64,000 nucleotides of DNA from a virus. Shown here one piece after another: positions 1-64,000 of this stretch. Position numbers and translations under genes: made by a program. The notes under the pieces were generated by a model, which made no database searches, had not been told where the DNA came from, and saw nothing but the letters and a program-made list of their open reading frames with translations. The stretch covers positions 2,896 to 66,895 of the IMG/VR virus record IMGVR_UViG_3300044720_000021. One strand, written 5' to 3'. The number at the start of each line of letters is the position of its first letter. The stretch's first letter is position 1.

Positions 1-900
1 GGAATCGAGTCAACGCCGCTCGTGCTCGGCGCGGCAAAGCAGATCAGCTTGACTGCCATCCCGCTCGGTGGCCCTGGGACGACGGCGAGGAAAATCTACC
101 GCTCGAAGGATGGCGGTGCCTACGCTCTCGTGACCACGCTCGCCAATAACGTGACAGTGGTTTTCACTGACAACGTGGCGGCTCCGGTCGGAGATCCCCC
201 GTCTGTCGGCACCGCAGAGCGTGTGACGGTGGCCGGCGAGGCTGAGGAGTCTGGAACGGCATACAACGCAATCATCGGTTCGATCACAGAGCTCTCCGAT
301 GTTCCTGACGGAGTGACCGACGTGACCAACCCAACAGCATTTTCAGGCGGCGGGGATGACGAGGAGATGGAGGACTTCCGAGTCCGATTGCTCGACTTCC
401 TGCGCAACCCCAAGACGGGCTCGCCCTCCGACATGGAGGCATGGGCTGAGGAGATCGAGGGAGTCGATACCGCCACCGCGTTCAACAACGACAACAACGG
501 CGTTGCGACGAACGGACACATCACCATCCGCATCGCAGGCCCGGATGGATCGATTCCAGGATCCCCGGTGATTGATGCCGTGCTCGCGCACCTTCAGAGC
601 AAGGCGATCTCGGGCGTGACTGTCCACGTACACACCTTCACTCCGGTGAGCACCGCTGTCACGGTGACAATCACTTTGGAGTCGGGTTACGTGCTCGCAG
701 ACGTGACGCCGGCAGTGCAGGATGCGATCGAGGACTACATCAACAACGTTCCGGTGGGCGGCACCGTCTACATGGCAGGACTGATCGATGCTGTGTTCGG
801 ACTCCCCGGAGTGAAAACCGTCGTGCTCAACACCCCCGCAACCGATCAGACGGCAACCGCTACGCAGAAGCGGACTCCTGGCGTCATCACGGTGAACTAG
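1..900 (+). CDS. Baseplate J-like protein (5' truncated)
   Basis: Frame open from base 1; GGGDDEEMEDFRVRLLDFLRNP..GSPSD..AWA motif typical of baseplate J; position before wedge and fibre genes. Confidence 0.85.
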   Translation, partial: GIESTPLVLGAAKQISLTAIPLGGPGTTARKIYRSKDGGAYALVTTLANNVTVVFTDNVAAPVGDPPSVGTAERVTVAGEAEESGTAYNAIIGSITELSDVPDGVTDVTNPTAFSGGGDDEEMEDFRVRLLDFLRNPKTGSPSDMEAWAEEIEGVDTATAFNNDNNGVATNGHITIRIAGPDGSIPGSPVIDAVLAHLQSKAISGVTVHVHTFTPVSTAVTVTITLESGYVLADVTPAVQDAIEDYINNVPVGGTVYMAGLIDAVFGLPGVKTVVLNTPATDQTATATQKRTPGVITVN

Positions 901-901
901 T

Positions 902-2161
902 ATGGCGCAGCCTGCACTCCCCGCTGAGGGTACATACGGCGAGATCGAACAGAATTTCATCGAGAACTCGCCGCCTGGGCTCTGGCCTGACAATCAGGAC
1001 TCCAACTTCGGTCAGCTTCGCAAGGTGCTCCTGGAACCGCTTCAGGAGTGTAGTGACAAGCTGACGGTTCTCGACTTGGAGATGTACGCAGCGACGGCTG
1101 AAATATATCTGTCGCTGTGGGAGCAGGAGTTGAACCTGCCCATCGCACCCACAGGCAAGACTCCGCAGAACCGGCGGGACGTGATCGCATCGAAGTTGGT
1201 CTATGGGCCGTTCACGAGGACGAGACTCAATGCGCTGATCGAGTCTTTCATCGTGACGACATTCGGCTCTGCCGCTTCGCTGACGCCGGAAGGGCTCGCT
1301 CTCGATGCTGGCGGCATCCCCCTCTTTTCAGGGGTGTCGTCGTTGGCCGATGCCTACCGAATCTACGAGGACATCAGAAACTACAGCTTCGAGCTCTGGA
1401 TCAAGAGCGCCGTCACACCGGACATGTCCTCTCTGACGCGAGAGCTCACGCGGATCGTTCCGGGTGGGCACAGCTACACGATCGACAACACCAAAACCAA
1501 TGTGCTCGATTACGCACGGACAGTTCGCAACAAGCAACCGAACGCGTTTTTCAGGCTCGGGCCTGACGCAAACGACACGTCGGGCTATGCAAATCACGGC
1601 ACGCTCAACGGCACCCATGCTCTCGTCTCCTCTCCGGGCCTGCTCGCGCACACAGACGTGGCAGGTGCCAACGGGGCTCGGGACTTCGATGGCGCGAGCG
1701 GCTATGTCTCGGTGCCCGACGCTCCTCAGCTTGATCTCGGTGATCACCTGACAATCGAGTTCTTGGCGCGGCCGGATGCAATCGGCGCGGTGATGCGGGT
1801 GGTGGATAAGGGAGCGAATGCCTACTCCGTCTACATCAACGCAACAGGGGCCGTCGTGTTCGAGCAGAAGGGCGTCGGCACCATTGCTGCGTCAACGATC
1901 AACCTCGTGGCCGGCACGATCTACTACGTCGAGGTCAAGAAGTCCGGGCCTCTAGTGAAAATCCTAATCGACGACGTTGACAGAACCGGCACGGTCGTGA
2001 ACAGGACGCTGGTGGATACAGCAACGGCTCTGAACATCGGACGTAACGTCTCAGGTGGAGAGTTTTTCAACGGCGCGCTCGATGAAGTAGCTCTCTACGA
2101 TCTGCGTCTGACGGCTGACGAGAGCACAAGCAACTACAAGACCGCCAAGAACATCGCCTGA
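902..2161 (+). CDS. Baseplate wedge subunit (Mu gp48/YmfQ-like N-terminus) fused to a LamG/ConA-like domain
   Basis: LWEQELNLP..RRDVIASKL at N-terminus; FDGASGYV..LTIEF..FNGALDEVALYDLRL at C-terminus. Confidence 0.7.
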   Translation: MAQPALPAEGTYGEIEQNFIENSPPGLWPDNQDSNFGQLRKVLLEPLQECSDKLTVLDLEMYAATAEIYLSLWEQELNLPIAPTGKTPQNRRDVIASKLVYGPFTRTRLNALIESFIVTTFGSAASLTPEGLALDAGGIPLFSGVSSLADAYRIYEDIRNYSFELWIKSAVTPDMSSLTRELTRIVPGGHSYTIDNTKTNVLDYARTVRNKQPNAFFRLGPDANDTSGYANHGTLNGTHALVSSPGLLAHTDVAGANGARDFDGASGYVSVPDAPQLDLGDHLTIEFLARPDAIGAVMRVVDKGANAYSVYINATGAVVFEQKGVGTIAASTINLVAGTIYYVEVKKSGPLVKILIDDVDRTGTVVNRTLVDTATALNIGRNVSGGEFFNGALDEVALYDLRLTADESTSNYKTAKNIA

Positions 2162-2173
2162 AAGGGGTGAAAA

Positions 2174-3181
2174 TTGATTAGGTACAAGTCATTCGAGGCT
2201 ACCGGAATCGCCCCCAACGGCAAGCTGTATGCGGGCGACCTGAATGGAATTCAGGACGCGGCAGCCGCACTGGCGGACTTCACGCAGCAGATCGATCTCG
2301 GCACACTCAGAATCGGTGAGGCCGGACTGACACTCTCGAAGTTCGGCACGGCAGAGGCGCAACTTGCAGGCCATCTGCGTGTGACGAAAATCCTTCGAGG
2401 ATTGGAAGGGATCATCCCCGGTGCCTTCACGACCACGCAGAGGGATGCCATCGCTGCGGGTGGTGCTCCCTACGGCCTCGGGATCATCAACACGACCAAG
2501 AACAAGTGGGAGTGGAACACGGGCTCAGACGGAGCTCGCGTGTGGGCACCGTTCGGAATCGACTCAGGTGTTGGCACCCTCGCGTTGCGACCGGCTGCAA
2601 ACGCAGTCACTCCGGGCTCGATCTACTTCGCGACCGATCAGGTGGTTGAGTACGTCAGCGACGGATCCTCTTGGTTCCGCAAGGGGTTGCCGGCGGGTGC
2701 AACGTGCGCATGGTTCGGCGCAGCGGCTCCAACAGGATGGGTGAAATACGACGGCACCAACCTCCCATCGTCCACGGGCATCTACGCAGACCTTGCGACA
2801 CATCTGGGTGGCGTTGCGACAGTGGACACACAGGGTCGAACGATCTTCGGGCAGGGGACGCACGCCGACGTTGACACGGTGAAAACCGACAACGATGGCT
2901 TGGCCGTAGGTTTGCGTCGTCCGAAGCACAAGACGAGCATCACCGACCCTGGCCATCGGACGGACTTCGAGTATTCGGACAGCGGAGTGACCTTCACGGG
3001 CCTCACCAACCGTCCCCGAATTGCTTGGAGCACGGCGTCGGACGTGAACAACCTTCTCGGTACGATCCCGGAATCCGATCGAGCGGCTACCCTGACCGGG
3101 ATCACGGCTGGCCCACAGACCGGAAACGAGCCCACAGACACGGTGCCGTACACCGTGGGGCTCTTTATCGCAAAGCTGTAA
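2174..3181 (+). CDS. Tail fibre protein with tail-collar domain
   Basis: PAGATCAWFGAAAPTGWVKYDG..DTQGRTIFG collar motif; follows baseplate genes. Confidence 0.75.
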   Translation: MIRYKSFEATGIAPNGKLYAGDLNGIQDAAAALADFTQQIDLGTLRIGEAGLTLSKFGTAEAQLAGHLRVTKILRGLEGIIPGAFTTTQRDAIAAGGAPYGLGIINTTKNKWEWNTGSDGARVWAPFGIDSGVGTLALRPAANAVTPGSIYFATDQVVEYVSDGSSWFRKGLPAGATCAWFGAAAPTGWVKYDGTNLPSSTGIYADLATHLGGVATVDTQGRTIFGQGTHADVDTVKTDNDGLAVGLRRPKHKTSITDPGHRTDFEYSDSGVTFTGLTNRPRIAWSTASDVNNLLGTIPESDRAATLTGITAGPQTGNEPTDTVPYTVGLFIAKL

Positions 3182-3203
3182 GTGAAAAAAGGAGGGCGGG
3201 AAC

Positions 3204-3443
3204 ATGGCACAGCAAATGAACATGAATCAAGCGCTCGTCGTACTTGGCGAGTTCGCACTGAAAAACCGGCTACTCGAAGATCAACTCGAATCGACAGAGG
3301 AGACGCTGCTTGCAAAGACTCTGGAATTCGAAACAGAGAAGGAGAAGGCCGAAGCACTGGCAAGTGAAAAGCGCATTCTGCTTGCAGACATAGCGGAACA
3401 GCGCGAGGAGATTGAAAATCTGAAAGGAGGGCGGGAAACATGA
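3204..3443 (+). CDS. Small coiled-coil protein (possible fibre chaperone)
   Basis: GGAGGG RBS; heptad-like Glu/Leu pattern. Confidence 0.5.
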   Translation: MAQQMNMNQALVVLGEFALKNRLLEDQLESTEETLLAKTLEFETEKEKAEALASEKRILLADIAEQREEIENLKGGRET

Positions 3444-4066
3444 GCGTCACCAAAGCAGAGTTCCGATGGCGGGTGTGGGTTCTAGGGGAGGGCGAGTTCG
3501 CGGCCAAAGGGCCACGCTCGAAGCCACGCCCGGATTTCGGTTTCGGCGGCAAGGGGCAGAAGCCTGTGCCTAAGCCGTGGTTCAAGAGGTTGGGGGAGTT
3601 CGTTGCCAAGCGCGAGAAGGACTTCGAGCCCAAGCCCGAGGCTCCTCCCAAGGACGATCCACTGAAAAGACCGGGCATGATCTCGGAGCACTTCAACGTG
3701 CGCGAGTTCGACTGCCACGACGGCAGGAGGGTGCCCAAGGCTGCCGAGCCCGCTCTTGTCAGACTCGCGGTGCAGTTCCTCGAACCGATGCGGAAGAAGT
3801 TCGGGCCTGCGCGGGTGCTCTCGGGCTATCGGCACAAGGCGTACAACCGCAGCATTGGCGGTGCGCTTTTCAGTCAGCACGACTATGACGACGATCCCAC
3901 GACGGTCGCTGCGGATCTGACCTTCGCGAAGGGCTCGCCGGCACAGTGGGCGGCTGAAGCGAGGCGGCTCTCTGACCGACTTGGCTTCGGCGGTGTGGGC
4001 GAGTACCGCAACTCGGGCTTCGTCCACATGGACAACCGCCGTTACAAGGCTCGTTGGAGCGGCTGA
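3440..4066 (+). CDS. Endolysin, peptidase M15A family
   Basis: SEHFNVREFDCHDG, SGYR..YNRSIGGA..SQH, GFVHMDNR zinc-peptidase motifs. Confidence 0.85.
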   Translation: MSVTKAEFRWRVWVLGEGEFAAKGPRSKPRPDFGFGGKGQKPVPKPWFKRLGEFVAKREKDFEPKPEAPPKDDPLKRPGMISEHFNVREFDCHDGRRVPKAAEPALVRLAVQFLEPMRKKFGPARVLSGYRHKAYNRSIGGALFSQHDYDDDPTTVAADLTFAKGSPAQWAAEARRLSDRLGFGGVGEYRNSGFVHMDNRRYKARWSG

Positions 4067-4071
4067 TTTTC

Positions 4072-4353
4072 ATGGACTTCCTTATTGGGGCGGCGGCAGA
4101 GATCCAGTGGATCGACACGATCCTCCGGGGCGGGTTTGCCGCCGCCCTCCTCTACGTCTTGTGGGGAGGTCACAAGGGGTGGTGGGTGTATGGGAAGGAT
4201 CATCGAGCAGCACTAGCTGAAAAAGACAGGCAACTTGCCGACCTGGAAATGCGGCACGACAGGTTGCGGGATGAAAAAGACGCCTGGATGCAGACGGCGT
4301 TGAAATCGGCTGGCGTAGCCTTCGCGTTGACCGAAGGAAAGGGCCAACAGTGA
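4072..4353 (+). CDS. Holin-like membrane protein with C-terminal coiled coil
   Basis: Hydrophobic GGFAAALLYVLWGG segment directly after endolysin. Confidence 0.55.
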   Translation: MDFLIGAAAEIQWIDTILRGGFAAALLYVLWGGHKGWWVYGKDHRAALAEKDRQLADLEMRHDRLRDEKDAWMQTALKSAGVAFALTEGKGQQ

Positions 4354-4544
4354 AAATTCTTGATCGCTTGCGGCGGCGAGAAGAAAGGAACGCAGTGGAA
4401 GATGGACATGTCAAGAAGGACGAGCTCGACATGCGTGTCGAGGAGGAAAAACGCACTCGGCGAAAGTTGAATGCGCGGCTGAACTCCATCGAAATCGAGT
4501 ACGGGCTCGACATCAAACCCACGAAACTGAAGGAAGTGAATTAG
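4350..4544 (+). CDS. Small charged hypothetical protein
   Basis: GTGA overlap with upstream stop; RBS. Confidence 0.5.
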   Translation: MKILDRLRRREERNAVEDGHVKKDELDMRVEEEKRTRRKLNARLNSIEIEYGLDIKPTKLKEVN

Positions 4545-4985
4545 GTGAAAATGCTCGGCGCTCTACTGACCAACACCATTGCTGTGCCTGAGCTCCTGTG
4601 GACGATATTCTGTTCGTTTGCGCTCTACTACGCAGTGCGTGTGACGCGGCGGGCGCGTCGAGCATTGCAGGCACTTCGTGAGGCAGGCATCAACTCCAAT
4701 CGCGAGTATGCGGCCATCACGACCATCTTGTTCTATGCCACAGTGTCATTTGTTCTTTTCATGTTCACCTTCATCGGCATAGCGGTGATGTTCGTTCCAT
4801 CCTCGAACGACCGGATCCAACCGATCACTTGGTTGGTCACGGGAGTTTTCATTGCAGGTGCAGCGGCTCTGGCGTTGGCGCTCTACATGAACGAGCGCCG
4901 GCGCGAGGGGCTGGAAAAGCGCATCGAGAAACATCTCCTTGACGCAGACGCAAAAGATCACCCTCTACGACGCAATGGCGATTGA
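4545..4985 (+). CDS. Membrane protein, about 3 TM segments (holin candidate)
   Basis: Three hydrophobic stretches; lysis cassette. Confidence 0.55.
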   Translation: MKMLGALLTNTIAVPELLWTIFCSFALYYAVRVTRRARRALQALREAGINSNREYAAITTILFYATVSFVLFMFTFIGIAVMFVPSSNDRIQPITWLVTGVFIAGAAALALALYMNERRREGLEKRIEKHLLDADAKDHPLRRNGD

Positions 4986-5201
4986 ATGGGCGGGGCACTG
5001 CTTTGGCGCAGGGTTCATGGCTGGCTGACAATCGCTTGGGCAATTCAGTTCTCTCTTGCATTCTGGATTTTCTCTGACCTACAACGAAGCGTTCCGTACT
5101 TGGTTGGCATCAGCATCGCAGCCGCGCTGCTCGGGGAAATGTCCTCGTGGCACGCAGTACGGGTCGAAGTGAAAATGGAGGAAAGGGGTGGTAGGGATTG
5201 A
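4986..5201 (+). CDS. Small 2-TM membrane protein
   Basis: WLTIAWAIQFSLAFWIF and VPYLVGISIAAALL segments. Confidence 0.5.
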   Translation: MGGALLWRRVHGWLTIAWAIQFSLAFWIFSDLQRSVPYLVGISIAAALLGEMSSWHAVRVEVKMEERGGRD

Positions 5202-5263
5202 CAACTAGCTACGCAGCCTGAAAGGGCGGGCTGTGCCTAGTCAGCTATTAAGGAGTTTTCTAA

Positions 5264-5806
5264 GTGAAAAAACTGCTCGTACTAACCCTCGCCGCCGCCG
5301 TGCTCGGAGGCGGCGTCGGGACATCAGCAGATGCAGCAAGTGAAAACCTGAGATACCCCGACAACAACGCATGGATCAAGCTATGGACAAAACGAGATCA
5401 GAGCATCTACTCCTCGATCAAAGTGGCCGCGAATATTTTCAGGGTCAGCGAATCGACCTTGCGTGCGGTCAACGGAGGCGAAGGAGGCAACGTCCACCCG
5501 GCCAAACTTCGGGTGACAATCTGCAACCCGTCGGCTTACGGCGGGATCGGCTGGAACACGCAAGGCTCTGCCGCGTTTGGGCCGTTCCAGTTCATGCTCG
5601 ACTACCGAGGCGCTTGCAACCGGCAGAAAGCCTGGGGCACCTTCGGTTCATACGACGACGCGGCTTTTCAGGAAGCAAAGCGACAAGGCATCTCGGTGCC
5701 GTATCGGTTCAAGCATCCTGCGTCGAACGTCGGGCAAGCACTTACCGCCGCCTACATGATCTCACGCGGCGGGCTGTACGTCCATTGGTGCGCATCCATG
5801 TGCTAG
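5264..5806 (+). CDS. Secreted lysozyme-fold lytic transglycosylase (SLT/Rpf-like)
   Basis: Signal peptide MKKLLVLTLAAAVL..ADA; LRAVNGGEGG (candidate catalytic Glu), AFGPFQF, GQALTAAYMI..HW. Confidence 0.65.
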   Translation: MKKLLVLTLAAAVLGGGVGTSADAASENLRYPDNNAWIKLWTKRDQSIYSSIKVAANIFRVSESTLRAVNGGEGGNVHPAKLRVTICNPSAYGGIGWNTQGSAAFGPFQFMLDYRGACNRQKAWGTFGSYDDAAFQEAKRQGISVPYRFKHPASNVGQALTAAYMISRGGLYVHWCASMC

Positions 5807-5810
5807 GAGG

Positions 5811-6101
5811 ATGAAAATGCCAACACAAAACACCTTGTCCACTCCCGACATCACACCGATCCAGAAACTCGTTGCTGCGGTCGGTGGACTGCTCGTGTCG
5901 GGAATGCTCCTCGTCAACGCGTTCGACATCTACGACATCAGTGGAGAACAGAGCGCGGCAGTCGTCGGCTTCTGGACGACCATTGGTTCAGTCGTAGTGG
6001 TCGCAGACGCGGTGATTCGCAATGGGCGCGCTCGTGCTCTAGCCGCGAATCCTCCCGCGCAGGCCGTGGACAAGGCAGGCGAGGCAACGATCGCGGGCTG
6101 A
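5811..6101 (+). CDS. Holin-like 2-TM protein
   Basis: Two hydrophobic helices, RNGRAR basic tail, end of lysis cassette. Confidence 0.6.
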   Translation: MKMPTQNTLSTPDITPIQKLVAAVGGLLVSGMLLVNAFDIYDISGEQSAAVVGFWTTIGSVVVVADAVIRNGRARALAANPPAQAVDKAGEATIAG

Positions 6102-6117
6102 GAGCTCGCCACAAGGT

Positions 6118-6161
6118 CGGACGGGGCTGAACCGTGCCCGCCCTCGGGGAAGCCCCGTCCG
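6118..6161 (+). terminator. GC-rich hairpin ending the lysis operon
   Basis: CGGACGGGGC / GCCCCGTCCG 10-bp stem; no U-tract. Confidence 0.45.
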
Positions 6162-6199
6162 GCAACAACAGTAGCGTAGGAGGGCTCTCACGAGTCCGC

Positions 6200-6228
6200 T
6201 TGACGCCGGCTCAGGAGGGCGCTACAGT
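6200..6228 (+). promoter_or_regulatory. Sigma70/SigA-type promoter of the replication operon
   Basis: TTGACG-17 nt-TACAGT. Confidence 0.7.
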
Positions 6229-6326
6229 CCCCGATCTGAGTGACGATCAGGTGCAGGGGAGGGGCTACGGCCTCTCCCCGCTTCTTCTGATCGCGCCGCA
6301 CCCGAACCGTCAACGAAAGGATTTTC

Positions 6327-6626
6327 ATGAGCGAGCAGTTGGCAGAGAGAACTTCGCGTCGTCGCGGGGGTGAAAACAAGTCGCGCCCGAGGTCTGCTTA
6401 TGACGCCGCACTGATCCAGGCAAAGATCGATGGCTCGTGCGTGGATCTCGTTCTTGCCGCTGACTTCGCGACACCCCTCGGAGGACTCCTCGACGCGGAC
6501 AAGACCATCGAGGCGAAGGTTTGTCACGTTGACACCTACGCCGTCGAGTTCGAAGTCATGGGAGCGAACGAAGGAAAAAAAGTTTGGATCAACAAAGGAT
6601 TCATTGCAGGGGTGTGGGTGCGATGA
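6327..6626 (+). CDS. Hfq/Sm-fold-like protein
   Basis: By-eye alignment to Hfq Sm1 and Sm2 motifs (see findings). Confidence 0.55.
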   Translation: [99 protein letters not shown]

Positions 6627-6841
6627 AAATTCGAGTTCGTCCTCTGGGTGTTAGATCACCTGTGATTCGCAAGATCTCTCTGCGAAGATTTTTTGGTTCT
6701 CTTTTCGGAAACCCCACCCCCCTTCCCGTAGGGAAGGAAGGGGCTCCTAGGGGTGAGAGTGTGAGAGAGGGGCGCGCGGAAATCATTCAGCACCCGAGAT
6801 TCGGGCCGATCATCGTGAAGTGGCCGGTGGCTGGCCAATGA
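6623..6841 (+). CDS. Small basic hypothetical protein
   Basis: ATGA overlaps at both ends. Confidence 0.5.
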   Translation: MKIRVRPLGVRSPVIRKISLRRFFGSLFGNPTPLPVGKEGAPRGESVREGRAEIIQHPRFGPIIVKWPVAGQ

Positions 6842-8196
6842 GTGTTGAAGCCCTAGTCGTCACCGCAATCGTGCAAGAGGGAGCTCAGGGGCTCCGCAAG
6901 GTCTACCAGGAGGGAATTTCATCCGATGACTTCTTGGTCTACGAGGAGGAGTTCGCCTGGATCGAGGAGCGTGTTGCTTCGAGGCAGCCGCTCAACGGAA
7001 GGATTTTCAAGGGCAAATTTGACGAGTTCGAGTGGTTGCCGCCGAACGAGAACCTGAAGGATCTGCTCGCTGAACTGAAAAAGGAACGCGCGTTCACCGA
7101 ACTTACTCAGCTTGTCAACACGCTGGCTGACGAGCTCGACATCGACAATGCGCTCTCCAAGGCTGAGTTCGCGCGTGACAGGGTGGCTGAGATCACAAGA
7201 CTGCACGCGCCGGCATCCGACCATCTCCTGATCGCCGGGTGGCGCGACCACTTGGAGGAACAGAAGCATCTGCGGACTCTGCGACGGGGTGGTGCTCCTC
7301 CTGGGATCCCGACAGGACTGGCCAACATCGATTTTCATTGGGACGGGCTAGTACCCGGCCGGATGATCGTCGTGCTCGGGCGACCGGGTGAGGGCAAGTC
7401 CTACCTGACGGCGCAGTTCGCCAAAGAAGCAATCCTTCAGCACTATCGTGTTCTGTTTTTCAGTCCTGAGATGAACAGGCGGGAGCATCTGTGCCGGCTG
7501 CACACGCTCCTGTCGGCGGACTCACGAGTGAAGGAAGCCCTCGGGCTGAAGCATTCGTTCCGCAACAGGGCATTGATGAACGGGATGGGCTACAACATGA
7601 AAAGCTATTCCCGATTCATGAAGCACTTGGAGGAGAACTACGGCGAGATCATCCTGATGACAAACACGCATCGACGGCGGAAGATGTCACCTGCGTTCAT
7701 CGAGGCGAAGATCGAGGACGTGAGGCCCGATCTCGTGATCATTGATCCGATCTACAAGCTGTCCGCTGTCCGGCCGCGTCAGAGCCGAGTCGAGGAACTG
7801 TCGGAGATCTCGGACTCGATCCAGGATCTTGCCGAGGCGTTCAGCATCCCGGTCGTGGTGACAAACCAAGCCCACCGGCAGGCGACGGGCAAGGACGACG
7901 CACCGCACAAGGACTCCTCGTTCAACTCGGACGTGCCGGTGCAGGAAGCAGATCATGTCATCGGAGTGAAAAACAAGAGCGACGAGAACCTGTTGCTGTG
8001 TCGTTGCTCGAAGTCGCGCTTCGGTGCGGATTTTCGTTTCGAGTCGCAGTTCTATCCCAACACCGGAGTGCTGCGAGAGCTCACGCAACCTGAAGGCAGC
8101 TACTACAACGGCAGTGACGATCCCGACGAGGACGAGTTGCGGGAGATCGTCGGCAATGCAACACGAGCGACCCAGGAGGTCGAAGCAGATGACTGA
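6838..8196 (+). CDS. dnaB: DnaB-like replicative helicase
   Basis: GIPTG..D; Walker A GRPGEGKS; Walker B LVIIDPIY; PVVVTNQAHR; KSRFG. Confidence 0.9.
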   Translation: MSVEALVVTAIVQEGAQGLRKVYQEGISSDDFLVYEEEFAWIEERVASRQPLNGRIFKGKFDEFEWLPPNENLKDLLAELKKERAFTELTQLVNTLADELDIDNALSKAEFARDRVAEITRLHAPASDHLLIAGWRDHLEEQKHLRTLRRGGAPPGIPTGLANIDFHWDGLVPGRMIVVLGRPGEGKSYLTAQFAKEAILQHYRVLFFSPEMNRREHLCRLHTLLSADSRVKEALGLKHSFRNRALMNGMGYNMKSYSRFMKHLEENYGEIILMTNTHRRRKMSPAFIEAKIEDVRPDLVIIDPIYKLSAVRPRQSRVEELSEISDSIQDLAEAFSIPVVVTNQAHRQATGKDDAPHKDSSFNSDVPVQEADHVIGVKNKSDENLLLCRCSKSRFGADFRFESQFYPNTGVLRELTQPEGSYYNGSDDPDEDELREIVGNATRATQEVEADD

Positions 8197-8464
8197 TGAA
8201 AAGATCAGCGTGTCGGCGCACGAGCGCAACAAGCCGCTGAAGTCGAAGCCGCCGCAAACGCGGGATGAAAAGATTCCGCACTCGCAGTTCTCGGATCCAC
8301 AGCAGCGAGTGGCCAAGGGAGTGAAAATCCTCTCGAAGTCCGAGAAGAACGACGGCACCAACATCGAGTCGAAGTCGCGGGGCGGCACGCTCGAAACCAC
8401 CGTCACGCTTGGTCGCGGTGACACAGAGCCTCTGGACGCTGATGGGCGGCGGCAGCACTCGTGA
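8189..8464 (+). CDS. Hypothetical protein
   Basis: GGAGG RBS, overlap with dnaB stop. Confidence 0.5.
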   Translation: MTDEKISVSAHERNKPLKSKPPQTRDEKIPHSQFSDPQQRVAKGVKILSKSEKNDGTNIESKSRGGTLETTVTLGRGDTEPLDADGRRQHS

Positions 8465-8631
8465 GCGAGCTCGAAGATGGAATTCCCGAGCCAACTCGTG
8501 AGGAGATCGAAAAGCACATTCACGCTGAGGCTGAAAAGTCGCTTCAGACGATGGTGCGTCATGCGTTGATTCGATTGACGCCCGATCAAGTGATCGAGGT
8601 TGTCACCAAGGAGGCGAGACTGCGTGGATGA
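8461..8631 (+). CDS. Small hypothetical protein (56 aa, not in ORF track)
   Basis: GTG start overlapping upstream stop; MSELEDGIPEPTREEIEKH.. Confidence 0.45.
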   Translation: MSELEDGIPEPTREEIEKHIHAEAEKSLQTMVRHALIRLTPDQVIEVVTKEARLRG

Positions 8632-9061
8632 AATTGTCAGCAAGATCTCCGACGAGGAGCGCAAGCGGCTGGCAGCGGAACATCGTGCAAAGGTCGCGTC
8701 CGGTGAAATCGACATCGGCCCGAAGCCGCATCACGAGCCCACTGACCCGAGCATTCGTGCAGACCGCAGGGATCCCCAGGCAATCGGTGAAAAGCTGATG
8801 GAGATTCGACGGGCGACCATGCCGGCGACGAACGGGAACGCCAACGGTGCTGCCTACGCAGGGGTAGGGCCGAGTCTCAGCGCGCTTGCTGACGAGCACA
8901 TGTCGGCGCTTCTGGCCGTGCCTGACGTGTCTCACAATGAAACCACGGTCGTTGGGACGGCACGGGCCTATCGTCAGGAGTTGGAGGAGCGTGCCGCCAA
9001 AGGTGACAAGTTCGCCATCTCGATGCTGACGACAGGTCAGCCCGGTGATTCAGACTCGTGA
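8624..9061 (+). CDS. Hypothetical protein
   Basis: AAGGAGG RBS before GTG; coding-like codon usage. Confidence 0.55.
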   Translation: MDEIVSKISDEERKRLAAEHRAKVASGEIDIGPKPHHEPTDPSIRADRRDPQAIGEKLMEIRRATMPATNGNANGAAYAGVGPSLSALADEHMSALLAVPDVSHNETTVVGTARAYRQELEERAAKGDKFAISMLTTGQPGDSDS

Positions 9062-9185
9062 CGGTCAGTGAAAAGATCCGAGGAGTTCTGATGCCTTGGC
9101 GTTGGGCTCGTCGGTGCGCGTGCCACAGCAATATTTGGCCGTGCCAATACATTGACCGACCGAATGACAATCACGGTAGCGGACG

Positions 9186-10232
9186 ATGATCTACCGAGGG
9201 CGGGATCTCAATGCTGTCGCGCTGTGGGAGCAGTGGTGCGACTTTCCTCCGAATTTCACCGGGGATGGTGGTGGCTTCTCACCGCTGGTCATCTGCCCCA
9301 ACCCAGAGCACAACACAGACAAGCGACATTTTCAGGTCAACCTGGACAAGCCGCTTGTTCACTGCTTTGCATCATGCGGAATTTCAGGGACATACGAGCG
9401 GGCCATCTCGATCATCACAGGATGCTCAGAACGAGAGGCCCGTAAGGAGCTCCTGAAACACGCTCGCGTCGGCCTCGGCCCGAGGTCAAAGCGAAAAGGA
9501 CGCACGCCGGACGGACAAGTCAAGAGGTTGCAGGATGAAATTCCAGCACCCTCGCTCGACTATGAGCGGTACATACCGCAAGCCGGCATGAATTACCTTT
9601 CTGCCCGAGGGGTCGGGGCCGACGAGATCGTGAAGTGGGAGATCGGATGGGATCCTGCCGAGAGACGGATTGTCATTCCGGCCCACGATGACAGGGGGAT
9701 CGTCCGGTTCTTGATCAAGCGGGCAGTGAGCCCGAAGGACTTCCCCAAGTACCTCTACTGGCCCGAAAAAGCCCTCTGTGGGTGGGGAAAGACAGATATT
9801 CTCTACGGTGCTTGCAGATTCGACCTGAAGCGCGTATCATCTTTTGGGCTCGTGCTCGTGGAGGGGAGCCTAGACACGGCGAGGATCGATTCCTTCGGTT
9901 TTCCGGCAGGAGGGATCCTGGGAACAGGGCTCAGTGAAAAGCAGAGAGGAGTGATCAATAGAACTAGACCCAAGCGGATTTTCCTTATGTTCGACAAGGA
10001 CGCGGCGGGCGTCCAGAACATCTGGAAGGCAGAGGCGATGCTTCCAAAGCTACCGCTGTTCGTCTGCTTGTATCCCAAAGGAAAATCCGATCCTCAAGAA
10101 TTGACCCAAGAGGAGGCGGAATACTCCATTGAAAATGCACTGTCGTTGGTCAGATTCAAACGAAGGCTCCCGAAACGTCAAGCGAGAAGGAAGGTGACGC
10201 ATGGCACAGCCCACAGTCAGACGCGTTCGTAG
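9186..10232 (+). CDS. dnaG: DNA primase (zinc-binding domain plus TOPRIM)
   Basis: CPNPEH..HCFASCG zinc finger; LVEGSLD and MFDKDAAG TOPRIM motifs. Confidence 0.9.
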   Translation: MIYRGRDLNAVALWEQWCDFPPNFTGDGGGFSPLVICPNPEHNTDKRHFQVNLDKPLVHCFASCGISGTYERAISIITGCSEREARKELLKHARVGLGPRSKRKGRTPDGQVKRLQDEIPAPSLDYERYIPQAGMNYLSARGVGADEIVKWEIGWDPAERRIVIPAHDDRGIVRFLIKRAVSPKDFPKYLYWPEKALCGWGKTDILYGACRFDLKRVSSFGLVLVEGSLDTARIDSFGFPAGGILGTGLSEKQRGVINRTRPKRIFLMFDKDAAGVQNIWKAEAMLPKLPLFVCLYPKGKSDPQELTQEEAEYSIENALSLVRFKRRLPKRQARRKVTHGTAHSQTRS

Positions 10233-11454
10233 CGTCGAAGATCGAAACGCCGGTCGTGGTCAGTTCATCACGCTGAAACAGACGAACGATCAGTTCGTTG
10301 GGTTCGCGCTTTTCAAGCCCGACCCCGAGCTCGATGACAACCCCGGCTATTTCGAATACTTCGAGCACTACACGCCAGCCACGGGGTACTTCCCGTGCAT
10401 CGGAGACGACTGCCCTCTCTGCGCGGAGGGTGACAATCCTTCCACGCGGGCAAAGACTCTCTGGCTGGTGCCGAACGACAACAAGGAAATGGATGCCGAC
10501 GACGCGATCGTGAAGGTTTTCACGATGAACTGGTCGGTGATCCAGGAGTTCGCAGATCTTCATGCGGACGACGAGACGATCCTCAGTCGCGCGTTCCGCA
10601 TCAAGCGGCTCGAAGGGAATGGGAAGTATGCGGTGCGTCCCAAGCCTGAAAAGCTGAAGGCTCCGCAGGTCAAGGCCGCGTTGAAGGACGCACCGGATCT
10701 CGAACAGCTTGCGACCAAGCAGGCCGCTCGCGTGATGGAAGATCTCGACACGGCCGAGGCGATGGAGGCCGACGAGGACAAGGCCGAGGAGAAGGCCACG
10801 GCGAAGCAGTCGTCCACGTCCAAGGCGAAGAAGGGCAAGCCCGCAGAGGAGCCGGAGCCCGAGACGGGTGAGGACTTCGACCCGGAGGAGGCCAAGGAGT
10901 TCGCCGGGGAAGTCACGGTGAAAAAGCTGAACAAGTCCAAGCTGATCCTCACCGTCGAGACAGGGGACGTGTCGTTCGACGTGTACCTGATCGAAGGCGG
11001 CGACTTCGACATCGAGGACTACAACAAGGACGACACGCTGTATATCGAGGCTGCGAAGGACGAGGATGGCGATTTCATCGCCAGCGTGGTCACGAATGCA
11101 GAGGAGCCTGCCGAGGAGCCCGAGCCCGGTGACGAAGGTGACGAACCCGAACTGTTCGAGGGAGACGACTTCGACGGCAAGGTGACGGTCGTGTCGGTCA
11201 ACTCGGAGAACGACACGCTCACGGTGAAAACCGAGGACGACAAGACGTTCGAGCTCTACTTCCTCGGTGAAGGAGAGGACGAGGACGGGAACGACTGGTC
11301 GAACCTCGATCTCGATGACTTCTCGGAGGACGAGGAGATTGTCGTCGTTGCGGAAAGGGACGGTGAGGGCGACATGCTCGCGTCCAAGTTTCCCGCGAAG
11401 GCGAAGGGCAAGAAGGCAGCAGCCGGCGCGAAGAAAGCGTCCGGTCGCAAGTAG
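10201..11454 (+). CDS. Single-stranded DNA-binding protein with duplicated acidic C-terminal modules
   Basis: YFEH..YFPCIGDDCPLC..FRIKRLEG..Y resembles phage SSBs; follows primase. Confidence 0.6.
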   Translation: MAQPTVRRVRSVEDRNAGRGQFITLKQTNDQFVGFALFKPDPELDDNPGYFEYFEHYTPATGYFPCIGDDCPLCAEGDNPSTRAKTLWLVPNDNKEMDADDAIVKVFTMNWSVIQEFADLHADDETILSRAFRIKRLEGNGKYAVRPKPEKLKAPQVKAALKDAPDLEQLATKQAARVMEDLDTAEAMEADEDKAEEKATAKQSSTSKAKKGKPAEEPEPETGEDFDPEEAKEFAGEVTVKKLNKSKLILTVETGDVSFDVYLIEGGDFDIEDYNKDDTLYIEAAKDEDGDFIASVVTNAEEPAEEPEPGDEGDEPELFEGDDFDGKVTVVSVNSENDTLTVKTEDDKTFELYFLGEGEDEDGNDWSNLDLDDFSEDEEIVVVAERDGEGDMLASKFPAKAKGKKAAAGAKKASGRK

Positions 11455-11535: not shown

Positions 11536-12489
11536 ATGAAAATGACCAAGAGGATCAGCACCATCATCTCAGCACTGATCGCAGCGATCGTTGTTGCCAC
11601 CATTGCGTCCGCAGGCGCTCCGCAGTCGGCCAACCGGCCGCTCGGTGTCAGCGGGAACGTGATCACAGCCTGCGTCGAGTCGAGCAGCGCGAAGATCAGC
11701 AAGGAGTCGCGTGGCGACCTGAAGCTGCGCAATTGCCAGCCTGGGTTCACCAAGCTGTCATGGAACAAGGTCGGCCCGAAGGGCGCGGCTGGACAGAACG
11801 GTGCCGCAGGCCCGCAGGGCGTGCAGGGATTGTCAGGCGCACAGGGTGCAACTGGCCCGCAGGGTGCTCAGGGTGGCGCAGGCCCGAAGGGTGAAAAGGG
11901 CGATACAGGTGCTACCGGCCCGCAGGGGCCAGCAGGCCCGCAGGGAGAGGCCGGCGCACCCGCACCGACTCTGCTTCGGCTCAGTGGTGACTTCGCAGGA
12001 ACGAATGCGACTGTCGCTACGTCGCTCGACGGCGTGCAGTTCGGCCCGTACCCCGATGGCGGACAGTGGGGCGGCTCGGTCGCTTACAACGGACTCAATG
12101 GGCACACGCTCAGTGAGATCACGCAGTTGTCCTACACGGTCAAGCACTCGTCTCTCGATGACAGTGCGATCTCGTCGCCGTACCTGCGGATTTTCCTCGT
12201 AGGTGACAACGACGTGCTGTTCGACGCGACCGAGTGTGCCACCGTCGTGCCGACAGAGGACGAGTTCCACACCTACGAGGTCACCACGGCTGAAAAGCTG
12301 CGCTACAGTGATGACCCATGCGGTGCCGAGTACGATCCGCAGACGTGGGAGGAGATCGTTGCAGCCCACGGTGAGGAGATCATCGACGGCATCTACGTGA
12401 CGACGGGATTTGCTGGCGGTGCTCCGCTCGCGGCGATCCTTCGCTCGCTGAAGGTGAACGGAACCGACTTCGTGTTCGGGGCCGCGTAG
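11536..12489 (+). CDS. Exported collagen-repeat protein with C-terminal beta-rich domain
   Basis: Signal peptide; about 20 Gly-X-Y triplets ([19 protein letters not shown]). Confidence 0.75.
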
Positions 12490-12597: not shown

Positions 12598-13071
12598 GTG
12601 AAAATGGAGACAGTGACACAGGCACAGCTTCTCAGAGGCACGCTCGACATCATGGAGGACGATCTTCGGATCACGTCGAAGCAGGCGAATGACTTCGTGT
12701 CGTCGTTGCGTGCGGTAGTCGAGGAGCAGGTGGAGTTCGGGAACAAGGTCAACCTGCTTGGGCTCGGTATTTTCACTCCGGTTGGCGTTCTTGCCAAGCC
12801 GAAGCGGAAAGGCGTCAAGCCGCAGACTGGCGAGGAAGTTGTCTACCCGGCGAAGCCCGCGTCCGTGAAGCTGAAGTTCGGCATCGCCAAGCGCGTCAGG
12901 GAGGCTCTGCCGGCCACGACGAGTAGCGCAGGCAAGTCTCTCCTCTCTACGGCCAAGCAGCGGGCAGAGGCAGCCGCAGAGCGTCGGGCAAAGCGCGAGG
13001 AGGAGGAAGCCAAGGCGGCACGCAAGGCCGAGCGCGATGCGAAGAAGGCGGCGGGCGGGAAGAAGAAGTGA
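12598..13071 (+). CDS. hup: HU/IHF-family DNA-binding protein with Ala/Lys/Glu-rich tail
   Basis: GNKVNLLGLGIF..KRKGVKPQTGEEVVYPAK..KF HU signature. Confidence 0.85.
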   Translation: MKMETVTQAQLLRGTLDIMEDDLRITSKQANDFVSSLRAVVEEQVEFGNKVNLLGLGIFTPVGVLAKPKRKGVKPQTGEEVVYPAKPASVKLKFGIAKRVREALPATTSSAGKSLLSTAKQRAEAAAERRAKREEEEAKAARKAERDAKKAAGGKKK

Positions 13072-29205: not shown

Positions 29206-29240
29206 GTCAGTGTCCGAGACGGCGACGAAGGAGGAGAAAG

Positions 29241-37031: not shown

Positions 37032-37060
37032 TTGACAGGCAAGGGAAAGGGGAGCAGACT
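37032..37060 (+). promoter_or_regulatory. SigA-type promoter of accessory operon
   Basis: TTGACA-17 nt-CAGACT. Confidence 0.55.
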
Positions 37061-37118
37061 CGATCTACCCGAAAGGCCAAGACCCCGCCGAAAGAGTGCA
37101 GGAACGAGAGGAGGAGGA

Positions 37119-41837: not shown

Positions 41838-42228
41838 AAACCCTGAAGCTGAAGGCGGACGACAGAGGATTTTCGAAGGAGAAGCGGTGTGGGTTATCCT
41901 GCCCGGAGATCCGCTGCCTACGGTCGAGCCTCTTGGCACGGCTGACCCATCAGTCCCTTGCTATGGGATTACTCCGACGAAGATTTTTGCTTTTCATCCC
42001 CAGACGTTCTGGCGTCGAGCTTCACAGGTGGACGAATGGATGCGGAGGTCGCAGGCTATCTTGCGGTTGATGATCGCGCAGCGAGTCGGGCTTGACAATC
42101 ACATTCGAGAGCTTCTACCCAAGGCGCAGCGATACGATGAAATCATGGAGGCGGTCGAAAATGATTCGCTCGCCCGAGACGGCCTTGAGATGATCGAGGC
42201 AGGAGAGAGGAGACTGAAAAATGGATGA
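41830..42228 (+). CDS. Hypothetical protein
   Basis: Coupled junctions. Confidence 0.5.
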   Translation: MGENPEAEGGRQRIFEGEAVWVILPGDPLPTVEPLGTADPSVPCYGITPTKIFAFHPQTFWRRASQVDEWMRRSQAILRLMIAQRVGLDNHIRELLPKAQRYDEIMEAVENDSLARDGLEMIEAGERRLKNG

Positions 42229-62405: not shown

Positions 62406-62665
62406 ACGACGAGGAGCGTAGAGATCGAGTTCACCTGCATTGTGAACATGAACTTGAAATCACGCGCTGCGAGGTCTGCCACGAGCCCGTGAACGTGGAG
62501 GCCAAGAAGGAGATGCTTGAAAAGTACGCGGACAACATCTACCGACCGGGCGAGGAGATAGACGAGTTGGAGAAGTTGACCGAGGAACAGATGACAGACA
62601 GGCGACGAGAGATCGAGTCTCTTTTCAGTGACCCAAGCGGCATCCTGGTGAGTGAAGGAGAGTAG
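62279..62665 (+). CDS. Frameshift extension of tail chaperone (GT product)
   Basis: -1 frame relative to 61854-62405; ends at TMP start. Confidence 0.65.
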   Translation: MEENRLERAIWKVMGVGKGAAFGTFADLTDGQICWIFLNYEVDDEERRDRVHLHCEHELEITRCEVCHEPVNVEAKKEMLEKYADNIYRPGEEIDELEKLTEEQMTDRRREIESLFSDPSGILVSEGE

Positions 62666-64000
62666 TGAGTCAGTCGAACTACAGAATGAACTTGGTCTGG
62701 ACGAGCCACGGAGAACAACTCCGGGGAGATCTCGACCGGATTGTCAGTCATCTCACAGGCGTCGAGAACGCGGCGCAGCGTGTCGCGCGTACCGGATCTC
62801 GTCTCGGATGGTGGGGGCAGGAGCTCAAAGCCATCGGGACGACGATCCGGTACGCGTTCGCCGGCTCCATCGTCTACGGGCTTGTCACCGCGACTGACTC
62901 GCTCGCGCAGTTCAACAACCGGCTCGGTGAAGTCGATGGACTCGCGGCCAAAGTCGTCGGCGGCAATCTCGTGGGGCTCGGCAAGGAGCTCAACGACGTG
63001 GGCGACTTCGCGCTTCAGACGAGCAACAAGTTCGGACTCGCTGCCGATGGGATCAGCCAGTTCATCACCAAGTTCTTTTCATCGAACCTCCCAGGTGGCA
63101 TTGCGCAGATGCGCGGCTTCGTGGAGGAGATGGCCCGGATGCAGCTTGTGCTCGGCGGTGAGGTCGGAGATCCGCAGGCGCTTGCAGGTGGCGTGGCTGG
63201 CATGTTGCACGCAACGGGTACTCAGGCGAACCCAACAAAGGGTGCGCGACGCATGGGCAACATCTTCGCGGAGCTCACGCGATTGTCACCGGGCTTGACC
63301 GGCGTGGACATCACCCGAGACATCGGCCGACTGTCCGGCGCGGCAACGGCCATGCGAATGACGCCCGAGGAGATTTTCGCTGTGTACGGCACAGCGTCTA
63401 TGGCTGGTGGCTCAACTCCGGTGATTGGACGCGGCGTGGCGCAGCTTCTCACGTCGTCGCTGCTCAACCCGAAGTCGAAGGATCAGAGGGCGGCGTTCCT
63501 GCAAATGGGACTGCCGACCGATCCGAACGCGTTGCGTGCAAAGGGTGGCTGGAATGTCCTTCAGCAGATGATGCGAGCGACGGGTGGTTCGAGCATCACG
63601 TCAGCGCAGCGGCAGTCGCTTCTGAACATCGAAGATCCAGCGGAGGCGTTGTCGCAAGCTGGAATTTCAGGCCCGAACGTCAGCCTCTTGACCAAGGCTG
63701 TCGGTCGCATCGAATCTGTCCGTCAGCTTCTCAACATCTCGGCTGTCGGAGGAACGGAGGCGCTTGACAAATTCAGGGAAAGCCTTCTCACGGCCACCCG
63801 TGAAAATCGCGCAGCGCAGAGAGAGAAGCTGATTCAAGATCGGCGTGCTCTGACGCTGGCGGCGAACGCACAGAAAAACCTTCAGCTTCAGGTGGTGCGG
63901 TCAATCGAACCTCTCCTCAATCCTGTCGCTCGTGGGCTGAAGCGAATTTCGGATTGGTCGGTCGGGCAAGACCCGAAAGCGACGGGTGCTGTGATTGCCG
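62665..64000 (+). CDS. Tape measure protein (3' truncated, not in ORF track)
   Basis: GTG at 62665; frame open where checked to window end; Ala/Gly-rich helical. Confidence 0.8.
   Translation, partial: MSQSNYRMNLVWTSHGEQLRGDLDRIVSHLTGVENAAQRVARTGSRLGWWGQELKAIGTTIRYAFAGSIVYGLVTATDSLAQFNNRLGEVDGLAAKVVGGNLVGLGKELNDVGDFALQTSNKFGLAADGISQFITKFFSSNLPGGIAQMRGFVEEMARMQLVLGGEVGDPQALAGGVAGMLHATGTQANPTKGARRMGNIFAELTRLSPGLTGVDITRDIGRLSGAATAMRMTPEEIFAVYGTASMAGGSTPVIGRGVAQLLTSSLLNPKSKDQRAAFLQMGLPTDPNALRAKGGWNVLQQMMRATGGSSITSAQRQSLLNIEDPAEALSQAGISGPNVSLLTKAVGRIESVRQLLNISAVGGTEALDKFRESLLTATRENRAAQREKLIQDRRALTLAANAQKNLQLQVVRSIEPLLNPVARGLKRISDWSVGQDPKATGAVIA

Follow-up and report, generated by a model that had tools for sequence, protein, structure and literature searches.

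A short DNA word maintained at near-uniform density across a phage genome drifts as dialects among its relatives

We analysed a stretch of 64,000 nucleotides (the window), comprising bases 2896–66895 of a single 69,205-bp phage contig, IMG/VR record IMGVR_UViG_3300044720_000021, and found that it carries the word TGA[A/C]A[A/T] (TGAMAW in degenerate code) throughout its length and on both strands. This is a recognition word, which is maintained in the phage's own duplex DNA at near-uniform density and under purifying selection. The trait belongs to the whole phage family, in which the specificity drifts as 'dialects'. The word points to a phage-encoded system that reads the phage's own DNA, and it is kept even at a cost to protein sequence. 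An earlier reading of the window, made by a model from the letters of the DNA (the sequence-only reading), had singled out the word as TGA(A/C)AA; the word is real, but its true form is broader and represents one dialect of a family-wide trait. In the literature, we found no published description of such phage words, of enriched primase sites or of evenly spaced phage motifs.

Enrichment, spacing and orientation of the word

Over the whole window, TGAAAA occurred 190 times, its reverse complement TTTTCA 112 times, TGACAA 58 times and TTGTCA 48 times. With both strands pooled, there were 302 copies of the TGAAAA pair, where a model of independent and identically distributed bases expects ~15, and 106 copies of the TGACAA pair, where ~20 are expected. 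A hand count of the same four words in bases 1–10000 (29, 15, 12 and 3) was correct for TGAAAA and TGACAA, while TTTTCA and TTGTCA really occur there 16 and 6 times; the GC content of ~62% assumed alongside that count was too high, as the window measures 58.6%. Single-base variants at positions 1–3 (NGAAAA, TNAAAA, TGNAAA) were all at least 10-fold rarer, and the only tolerated changes were A to C at position 4 and A to T at position 6, which define the word as TGA[A/C]A[A/T]. Its information content is ~10 bits. The window (positions 1–64000, both strands) thus holds a dispersed, evenly spaced array of 487 sites in coding and intergenic DNA, comprising 302 copies of TGAAAA and 106 of TGACAA, the remainder being TGAAAT or TGACAT.

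In 100 dinucleotide-preserving shuffles TGAMAW occurred 104.3±10.7 times and no shuffle reached 487, ruling out dinucleotide composition as the cause. Synonymous shuffling within genes yielded 31.6±4.4 copies of TGAAAA and 15.1±3.6 of TTTTCA, compared with 157 and 106 observed (z 25–29), and the excesses were larger still when codons were permuted or resampled from the codon usage of the genome. Across these three codon-aware null models, TGAAAA and TTTTCA were in 5–13-fold excess (z 25–44) and TGACAA and TTGTCA in ~3–5-fold excess (z 8–11); both orientations of TGAMAW lay 3.5–5 fold above synonymous shuffles. Within genes, the word occurs in the two stop-free sense frames and, in reverse orientation, in each of the three frames; it also occurs in intergenic DNA, at 8–10 times expectation. 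The codon-aware nulls and the intergenic enrichment together rule out a codon or amino-acid artefact. Selection for off-frame stops ('ambush' selection) was also rejected, given the intergenic excess, the equal enrichment of the reverse complement and the lack of enrichment of TGAGA and TGATA. The signal therefore does not vanish when amino acids and codon usage are respected. The proposal of the sequence-only reading, a DNA-level address under selection and not a by-product of codons, amino acids or composition, is borne out by the codon nulls and the intergenic excess, as well as by the site conservation and the AT-rich controls described below.

Inside genes, the word is built from otherwise rare codons, as had been suspected: its sites hold 38% of all AAA codons and 44% of all TTT codons, and motif codons make up 4% of the total. 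Thirteen gene starts had been listed as reading (A/G)TGAAAA, and all of them do. In seven, however, an in-frame ATG comes directly after the word (RTGAAAATG). These seven starts sit behind a Shine-Dalgarno (SD) sequence, and here either the word lies in the spacer between this sequence and the start, or the true start is 6 nt downstream. Close inverted pairs of the word were rarer than chance (1 observed, 4.3 expected). Two had been reported; the intergenic TGAAAAT-N8-ATTTTCA at 33385–33406 (unstranded) is as described, and the window has no other close convergent TGAAAA pair, but the pair at 29178 is TGACAA-N5-TTGTCA and not a TGAAAAT pair.

One TGAMAW site occurs per ~130 bp in the window and per ~90 bp in close relatives. 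TGAAAA and TGACAA together amount to one per 159 bp, close to the earlier estimate of ~170 bp, and the density that had appeared similar by eye is indeed uniform along the genome, including the minus-strand block. Gaps between sites had a coefficient of variation (CV) of 0.62–0.74, compared with 0.99±0.04 for random placement, and the largest gaps were below random expectation. For TGAAAA alone, the CV was 0.66 (random 0.99±0.06), only 9 gaps were shorter than 40 bp (random 53±6), and the largest gap, 725 bp, was smaller than in all of 2000 simulations. TGACAA and TGAAAT avoided the 40-bp surroundings of TGAAAA (0.18 and 0.22 vs 0.35), which control words did not. The fine structure of the spacing was studied in ~2,600 sites pooled from four genomes. 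A soft exclusion zone surrounds each site, with a reach of ~35–65 bp and recovery by ~65 bp. The pair distances in this pool showed no phasing at 10–11 bp (10.5 bp), only the coding period of 3. A helically phased or curved A-tract array is rejected on this ground and because the words of classes B and C (see below) contain no A-tract. On the question of periodicity, which the sequence-only reading had raised, the sites are therefore evenly spaced and not helically phased.

Measured against a shift null that keeps each orientation's own spacing, pairs in opposite orientation at 7–40 bp fell to 0.47 (z -14.5); for pairs in the same orientation, the value was 0.44 (z -13.8). Both depletions were seen in 7/7 genomes, and in each of the seven, 0/400 shifts reached the observed value for opposite orientations. 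Local homeostasis of AT content does not lie behind this avoidance, since AT-rich hexamers other than the motif are, if anything, a little more frequent in the vicinity of sites (ratios 1.13 and 1.07), and GC content does not rise in the flanks to compensate. Because opposite-orientation sites avoid each other just as same-orientation sites do, the two orientations are functionally interchangeable, and the sites behave as one functional class held at near-uniform density. The ratio of forward to reverse sites was homogeneous in 4-kb bins in four genomes (p 0.53–0.74), with no polarity switch, and a mild sense-strand excess of TGAMAW (~1.5:1) tracked the gene strand. Replication polarity was found along none of the genomes examined, and the sequence-only reading was right to set the word apart from Chi and from FtsK-orienting polar sequences (KOPS). 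A strand-specific process, be it a primase template, Chi, KOPS or an RNA motif, would leave sites on opposite strands independent of each other. It follows that the reader engages duplex DNA, or a structure such as a four-way junction in which the two strands are equivalent.

Dialects, site conservation and the host-like genome

The phage has no megablast match among named phages, and its large terminase (TerL) and DNA polymerase III (Pol III) alpha proteins share 22–31% identity with known phages, which makes the latter remote relatives only. Relatives were sought by scans seeded with the TerL, primase, RuvC-like and H1-like proteins. These scans gave ~20 contigs, and eleven records were taken in full. 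Between the relatives G002 and G001c84 (72% nucleotide identity), motif hexamers in 61 orthologue pairs were identical in 47% of cases, compared with 23% of other hexamers, AT-rich controls included, and 51% were still a site, compared with a base rate of 0.5%. When G000 was compared with G002 or G001c84, 24–27% of motif hexamers and 11–12% of others were identical. These sequence comparisons show individual sites that are under purifying selection and yet also turn over. Where one genome has a site that the other lacks, the residues encoded there are mostly different (187 vs 38 in the closest pair), so that the word is gained and lost largely via amino-acid change. Lineage-specific accessory genes have the same word density as core genes.

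In related phages, for which the sequence-only reading had proposed the same test, the enrichment recurs, with dialects. G002, G001c84 and G004/G003 likewise exceeded their synonymous shuffles, and in the first two of these the sites were also evenly spaced. We distinguish five classes. Class A uses TGAAAA (G000, G011, L054), and class B uses TGACAA (426 and 369 copies, ~11 TGAMAW sites per kb, in G002 and the contig G001:C84, respectively). Class C uses TGCCAA and TGACAA (G013, L031), class D uses (T)G[A/G/T]AATT (G012, G014, G015 and G007; weak in G006), and class E uses mixed words (G004, which is identical to G003 over their overlap). Across ~20 related uncultured contigs and genomes, the dialects include TGACAA, TGCCAA, TGAAATT, TGGAATT, TGTAATT and TGCCCTT. 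Position 2 (G) is invariant, position 1 is nearly so and position 3 is variable. The word is a 6–7-mer with a site density of 7–15 per kb in the family. Dialect words are always rare by chance, and they are lengthened to 7-mers in the relatives of lower GC content. Six contigs with the most divergent H1-like members all carry TG-type words, the further dialect TGCCCTT among them, while relatives with TerL at ≤35% identity or primase at 27% showed no word enrichment. In the divergent family members L103 and L108, TGCCCTT occurs in the context AAGGGCAAG/CTTGCCCTT beside TGACAAG or TGCCAAG, so that a single genome may combine two specificities. A single metagenome sample yielded contigs with different dialects (L001 and L023).

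The contig G001:C84 was binned in a 4.5-Mb 'Acidobacteria' metagenome-assembled genome (MAG, G001), across which TGAAAA occurs at 0.3 per kb. In 160 kb of the MAG chromosome, TGAMAW occurs at 0.76 per kb, compared with 10.7 per kb in its phage contig; TGACAA stands at 0.57 times expectation, and TGACAA and TGCCAA are under-represented. The sequence-only reading had considered that a host chromosome might share the bias; the only host-like genome lacks the word, but is known as host-like by binning alone. The tetranucleotide style of the phages matches that of the MAG (r 0.82–0.89; r 0.89 with its phage contig) in being rich in GATC and TCGA, and this match is probably the reason why the phage contig was binned there. 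GATCGA is found at 7.3 times expectation in the MAG, and in the window GATC and TCGA are each ~2.6x expected (1216 and 1250 vs 471, both strands). A scan of that phylum's genomes for close phage relatives returned distant terminases only. Since the dialects drift and the host-like genome lacks the word, the reader is most likely phage-encoded and co-evolving with its sites.

Candidate readers and competing explanations

Fragments G006–G010 lack the replication module and so say nothing about the co-occurrence of genes. The strict non-structural core of seven complete genomes consists of six genes, all on the plus strand in the window. Three belong to replication: a DnaB-family replicative helicase (6838–8196; Pfam DnaB_C 2e-22), a DnaG-type primase with a CHC2 zinc finger (9186–10232; Pfam Toprim_2 and DNAG_N) and an acidic protein resembling single-strand DNA binding proteins (SSB-like, 10201–11454; phrog_14578, 2e-6). 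The others are a RuvC-fold Holliday-junction resolvase of 226 aa (24038–24718), an SNF2/ResIII-type helicase or translocase (25610–27058; Pfam ResIII, DEAD and Helicase_C) and a basic protein of 305 aa resembling histone H1 (29241–30158). The complete class A genome G011 has no detectable HU, Pol III alpha, RecA or small resolvase, while it retains the primase, DnaB, SSB-like, RuvC-like, SNF2 and H1-like genes (L058–L061); its polymerase and recombinase are presumably replaced by other types. Two of the four proteins that the sequence-only reading had named as candidates drop out on this evidence. The HU/IHF-family protein with a Lys/Ala-rich tail (12598–13071, plus strand; Pfam Bac_DNA_binding 7e-11) is missing from G011, which bears the motif, and the helix-turn-helix protein at 44072/44135 has no orthologue in relatives. 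Another of the four, the 29241 protein, remains a good candidate: it could be the reader, as a targeting subunit or as a coat.

In the window and in divergent relatives alike, the genes for the RuvC-like, SNF2, HIRAN and H1-like proteins lie together as a syntenic module. The gene for the HIRAN-domain protein (28770–29168, plus strand; Pfam HIRAN 1e-10) immediately precedes that of the H1-like protein, as it does in 5/6 divergent relatives; G014 lacks HIRAN and the PD-(D/E)XK nuclease. The AlphaFold2 (AF2) model of the RuvC-like protein has a predicted TM score of 0.83, and its top 14 Foldseek matches were RuvC or MOC1 (probability 1.00, TM 0.72–0.77, target). Residues D26, E98, E99, D203 and D206 are invariant in 8 orthologues, and from the motifs we infer that they are equivalent to the RuvC catalytic residues. 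Being core in all complete motif-bearing genomes, this protein is a candidate reader or cutter. In the divergent relative L107, a resolvase of the T4 endonuclease VII type (L107:9644-10240; Pfam Endonuclease_7) adjoins the SNF2/HIRAN/H1-like module, besides the RuvC-like gene. No homologues of the RuvC-like and H1-like proteins were found in IMG/VR outside the clade.

The H1-like protein, with an isoelectric point (pI) of 11.3, begins with a Rho_N/HeH-like N-terminus, which resembles the Rho N-domain at Z 4.3, followed by ~100 disordered residues rich in Lys, Ala, Pro and Thr, a conserved helical domain (residues 140–225, with invariant R...TGQH; confident in AF2) and a basic tail. Structure and feature searches with the globular domain gave no convincing match (best Z 6.2). 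A profile of this domain retrieved 209 clusters (50% identity) among 1.84e9 proteins, nearly all with the same architecture, and with this protein as its marker the family is no curiosity in public metagenomes. The protein is restricted to the clade and present in every motif-bearing genome, and all sampled carriers have TG-type words. Its gene has the highest GC content at third codon positions (GC3) and the highest coding score among genes of its size. Upstream lies the inverted pair TTGACAA-N5-TTGTCA (29177–29194, plus strand), whose first arm forms the -35 element of a conserved promoter of the sigma70 type: TTGACAA, ~17 bp and then TAnnnT (29177–29210 in the window) precede the H1-like orthologue in 7/8 genomes, whatever their motif class. 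Since these elements are kept regardless of class, they mark a promoter and not a class-specific operator, and an autoregulatory operator was rejected. Judged from sequence, the conserved promoter implies strong transcription of the H1-like gene by host RNA polymerase.

Our leading explanation, to which we give a tentative preference rather than confidence, is that the reader is the branch-processing module made up of the RuvC-fold resolvase, the SNF2 motor, the HIRAN protein and the H1-like protein. The word would then be the place where the module engages or cuts, that is, the resolvase's cognate sequence and/or a docking site of the H1-like subunit. Wherever a four-way or reversed-fork intermediate of this recombination-heavy replication arose, a usable site would be no more than a few tens of bp away, and the branch could be resolved before packaging. 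As a junction presents both strand pairs, either orientation would serve equally; an additional site near an existing one would add little, and long gaps would be costly. Junction symmetry and costly gaps would together predict even, orientation-blind spacing, as observed. Left to itself, a junction migrates slowly, by a few steps per second, and would need a site within tens of bp if it is to be resolved during one infection cycle, which rationalises the density. Cleavage by enzymes of the RuvC family is confined to cognate words (5'-A/T-T-T|G/C-3' in E. coli), which limits where junctions resolve (PMC6736871). The complementary strand of every dialect holds TT and then G, C or T. The E. coli consensus (PMC6736871) is present in TTTTCA, ATTTCA and AATTCC, can be matched to TTGTCA and TTGGCA in another register only, and does not fit AATTAC. 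Like the word described here, the words of RuvC-family enzymes, which differ in Cce1, Ydc2 and MOC1, are short, asymmetric and orientation-neutral on duplex DNA, and a RuvC-fold enzyme is encoded in every motif-bearing genome. The resolvase and the SNF2 helicase, as co-distributed as the 29241 protein, have the better family precedent for sequence-dependent action.

Several points weigh against this explanation. Nothing computed here ties the word to one protein, as all candidates are co-distributed in one clade. We know of no genome that is enriched for its own resolvase's word. The ~10 bits of the word exceed the ~6 bits of bacterial RuvC and any known resolvase specificity, and the words of classes B and C put G where canonical RuvC requires T. 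The phage and other viral RuvC-type resolvases studied so far are reported to be promiscuous, more so than the bacterial enzymes (PMC3864405). A second, small resolvase is present in most genomes (phrog_2002; Endonuclease_7 in L107) and should make them less dependent on a single enzyme. The RuvC-like protein has 0 columns exclusive to two non-sister TGAAAA-class genomes, compared with 10 in the primase. Finally, the 1.5:1 sense-strand excess of TGAMAW is not predicted, though coding and use in SD spacers may explain it.

A wider form of the same idea, possible but doubtful, is that the word is a dense, fast-evolving mark of 'self', rare in the host and read by the H1-like protein with its SNF2, HIRAN and RuvC partners. 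The virus would then encode a sequence-based system to tell self from non-self, with a dialect for each lineage. If the reader is such a viral self-recognition system, the phenomenon could be categorically new.

The main rival, ranked second after the branch-processing module, develops the suggestion of the sequence-only reading that the word is the address of a coat. We consider it rather doubtful. An abundant H1-like protein would nucleate at the word through its globular domain, spread ~±50 bp through its Lys-rich tails, and so specifically coat, compact or shield phage DNA; a word rare in the GC-rich host would prevent titration by the host chromosome. In keeping with this, the protein is clade-restricted and occurs in every motif-bearing genome sampled, divergent ones included; it combines its high pI and two long basic disordered arms with a confident conserved helical domain; and it has its own consensus sigma70-type promoter and the top GC3 and coding score for its size. 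The orientation-blind, even coverage with an exclusion of 35–65 bp resembles a footprint, and the words are rare by chance, extended to 7-mers where GC is lower and, in the case of TGACAA and TGCCAA, under-represented in the MAG. The same low-complexity Lys/Ala/Pro/Thr tails beside a small globular domain are found in linker histone H1 and in bacterial H1-like and AT-hook nucleoid proteins (AlgP-type and HupB-type tails), but the globular domain of the 29241 protein has no detectable relationship to the winged helix of H1/H5. To our knowledge, H1-like and AT-hook nucleoid proteins do not use a dispersed hexamer address. Against the coat, sequence-specific binding by the H1-like protein would have to be assumed, and its globular domain has no informative structural match. 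Moreover, the spacing shows neither nucleosome-like phasing nor hard-core exclusion, no residues of the globular domain track the motif class, and the tight pairing with HIRAN and SNF2 suggests remodelling of forks or junctions and not a passive coat.

It is unlikely that the word marks primase starts, a reading that the spacing data disfavour. The DnaG-type primase would initiate on the template 5'-[A/T]T[G/T]TCA-3', with a cryptic A and the primer pppGA[A/C]A[A/U]; a moving helicase-primase would use a fraction of the sites, and a GC-rich genome would have to enrich an AT-rich word to reach a workable density. The protein has profile matches in the Protein Data Bank to the Aquifex, E. coli and T7 primases, and its zinc finger, the template-reading module, is intact (CPNPEH...HCFASC). 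DnaG primases use triplets of the 5'-YTA-3' type, which the invariant G2, near-invariant position 1 and variable position 3 resemble. The primase also shows the sole excess of residues exclusive to non-sister genomes of the same class (10 columns vs 3–5), and E127, E147 and R254 are common to all three class A genomes. The covariation is weak, however, at ~p 0.04 and in effect a single event, and a similar affinity in the adjacent DnaB and SSB genes suggests ancestry of the module instead. Phage T7, whose sites (5'-GGGTC, TGGTC, GTGTC) are a similarly degenerate word of 5–6 nt served by an encoded zinc-finger primase, has ~8 per kb by chance, a density that is matched here by selection; its real sites occur at only 1.1–2.1 times expectation and are randomly spaced (CV 0.94). 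Sites used as templates on opposite strands should be independent, yet they avoid each other as strongly as those on one strand (0.47 vs 0.44) and do so in a motif-specific manner, no genome shows a polarity switch, and the second primer base of class D (A, G or U, with positions 3–6 fixed) is atypical. In G004, the primase orthologue (L012:11670-13670) carries an insertion of ~320 aa inside the CHC2 zinc finger, between ...LVHC and CFANCG, which by size and sequence looks like an intein with a homing-endonuclease domain. Other oversized proteins, the RecA of G004 (604 aa vs 356) and the SNF2 helicase of G014 (737 aa vs ~470), may also contain inteins.

No more probable is a molecular drive, in which a sequence-biased step of recombination (initiation, resolution or heteroduplex repair) favours word-bearing alleles in mixed infections until saturation, irrespective of fitness; a drive of this kind has been proposed for bacterial uptake sequences. 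Its strength lies in the parallels with the uptake signal sequences and DNA uptake sequences (USS/DUS) of the naturally competent bacteria Haemophilus and Neisseria, which are short words over-represented 10–100 fold in both orientations, shape codons and amino acids inside genes, are evenly spaced and have dialects (PMC2817400, PMC3630211, PMC1939737). The statistics of the phage word most resemble those of bacterial uptake sequences, but in a virus and at a ~ten-fold higher density: USS/DUS are 9–12-mers present at ~1 per kb in bacterial chromosomes and read by uptake machinery, whereas the phage word is a 6–7-mer at 7–15 per kb in a virus without an uptake step. Competence machinery was absent from the annotated phage genes. 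Recombination genes are plentiful (RecA, DprA-like, RuvC-like, SNF2, HIRAN and PD-(D/E)XK), and the equal word density of accessory and core genes also fits a drive. On the other side, the mechanism of biased conversion is hypothetical, and site conservation fits selection and drive alike. A drive would explain accumulation and still need a phage-encoded reader, and it is largely compatible with reading by the branch-processing module.

That a sequence-specific enzyme modifies the base or backbone of the word, whose density would then protect the whole genome, is very unlikely. Drift of specificity in the manner of dialects is typical of modification enzymes, and a NADAR-domain protein (40542–41099; Pfam 1e-28) and an anti-restriction-like protein (31030–31374; phrog_2059/25535) show conflict at the level of DNA. 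Nevertheless, a search of ~70 proteins by Pfam and PHROGs, in which small or novel enzymes could escape, found no methyltransferase, glycosyltransferase, transglycosylase or nucleotide-modifying enzyme, and none is in the strict core; the known targets of modification, moreover, show no enrichment in phage genomes. As proteins with a NADAR domain undo the ADP-ribosylation of DNA bases by DarT-type enzymes, the gene may serve in counter-defence. Read on the complementary strand, the core of the motif (T-N-T-C) matches the sequence context published for DarT2 targets.

A bias derived from the host (its oligonucleotide usage or a Chi-like host factor) or from context-dependent mutation is highly improbable and already largely refuted, for although phages and co-binned MAG share a tetranucleotide style, the MAG lacks the word, one sample holds different dialects, and even spacing, orientation redundancy and site conservation are not products of mutation bias; nor is there any polarity.

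Known signal words, significance and gene content

Two further systems invite comparison. Chi (read by RecBCD/AddAB) and KOPS and the architecture-imparting sequences (AIMS; read by FtsK) are likewise over-represented, family-specific words read by DNA-processing motors, but they are strand-polarised to replication and occur once per several kb, in contrast to the redundant orientations of the phage word, both enriched and without a switch. HIP1 (GCGATCGC) of cyanobacteria is an extremely abundant, genome-wide short word whose function is debated; it is a palindromic octamer of a cellular genome, whereas the word described here is asymmetric, viral and variable between close relatives.

Genome-wide signal words, among them Chi, KOPS and uptake sequences, have each led to a machine that handles DNA and to its way of distinguishing between DNAs. 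In this virus, a word that recurs every 90–160 bp takes up ~4% of the codons, including 38–44% of those of two rare kinds, and has cost many changes of amino acid; relatives have re-tuned it repeatedly. All this implies that phage DNA is engaged, strongly and to this day, with a phage-encoded reader in a way not described before. Identifying the reader would give a function to a clade-specific histone-like protein and to the SNF2/HIRAN/RuvC module, and could reveal by what means a virus handles its own DNA or sets it apart. The word is also a simple sequence signature for spotting these phages and their dialect groups in metagenomes.

A home-made gene caller based on codon usage placed 112–113 genes, covering ~90% of the genome and nearly all on the plus strand; no tRNA genes were found in the genome. 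The sequence is identified as a phage by its terminase, portal, capsid, tail and replisome genes. The annotated genes include tail and baseplate genes, an M15 peptidase, the DnaB helicase, the DnaG-type primase, the HU-family protein, Pol III alpha, RecA, a PD-(D/E)XK nuclease, the SNF2/ResIII helicase, the HIRAN and NADAR proteins and a gpA-type large terminase, together with the SSB-like protein, a small resolvase (phrog_2002) and a DprA-like protein. This last, a putative recombination mediator (23497–24048; phrog_768, 2e-53), lies just upstream of the RuvC-like gene and has no orthologue in close relatives. A collagen triple-helix repeat protein (11536–12489; Pfam 1.5e-8), for which relatives have no orthologue, lies within the replication module between the SSB-like and HU-like genes, and a dual-specificity phosphatase is encoded at 42221–42880. 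Words containing TA are almost missing from the window (TGTAAA 0, TGATAA 1, TAAAAA 1 and TTAAAA 1). The largest non-coding stretch of the window, ~1 kb without a called gene at 36066–37118, still contains motif sites; it separates the minus-strand block (33758–36065) from the next plus-strand genes and is possibly a divergent promoter or origin region.

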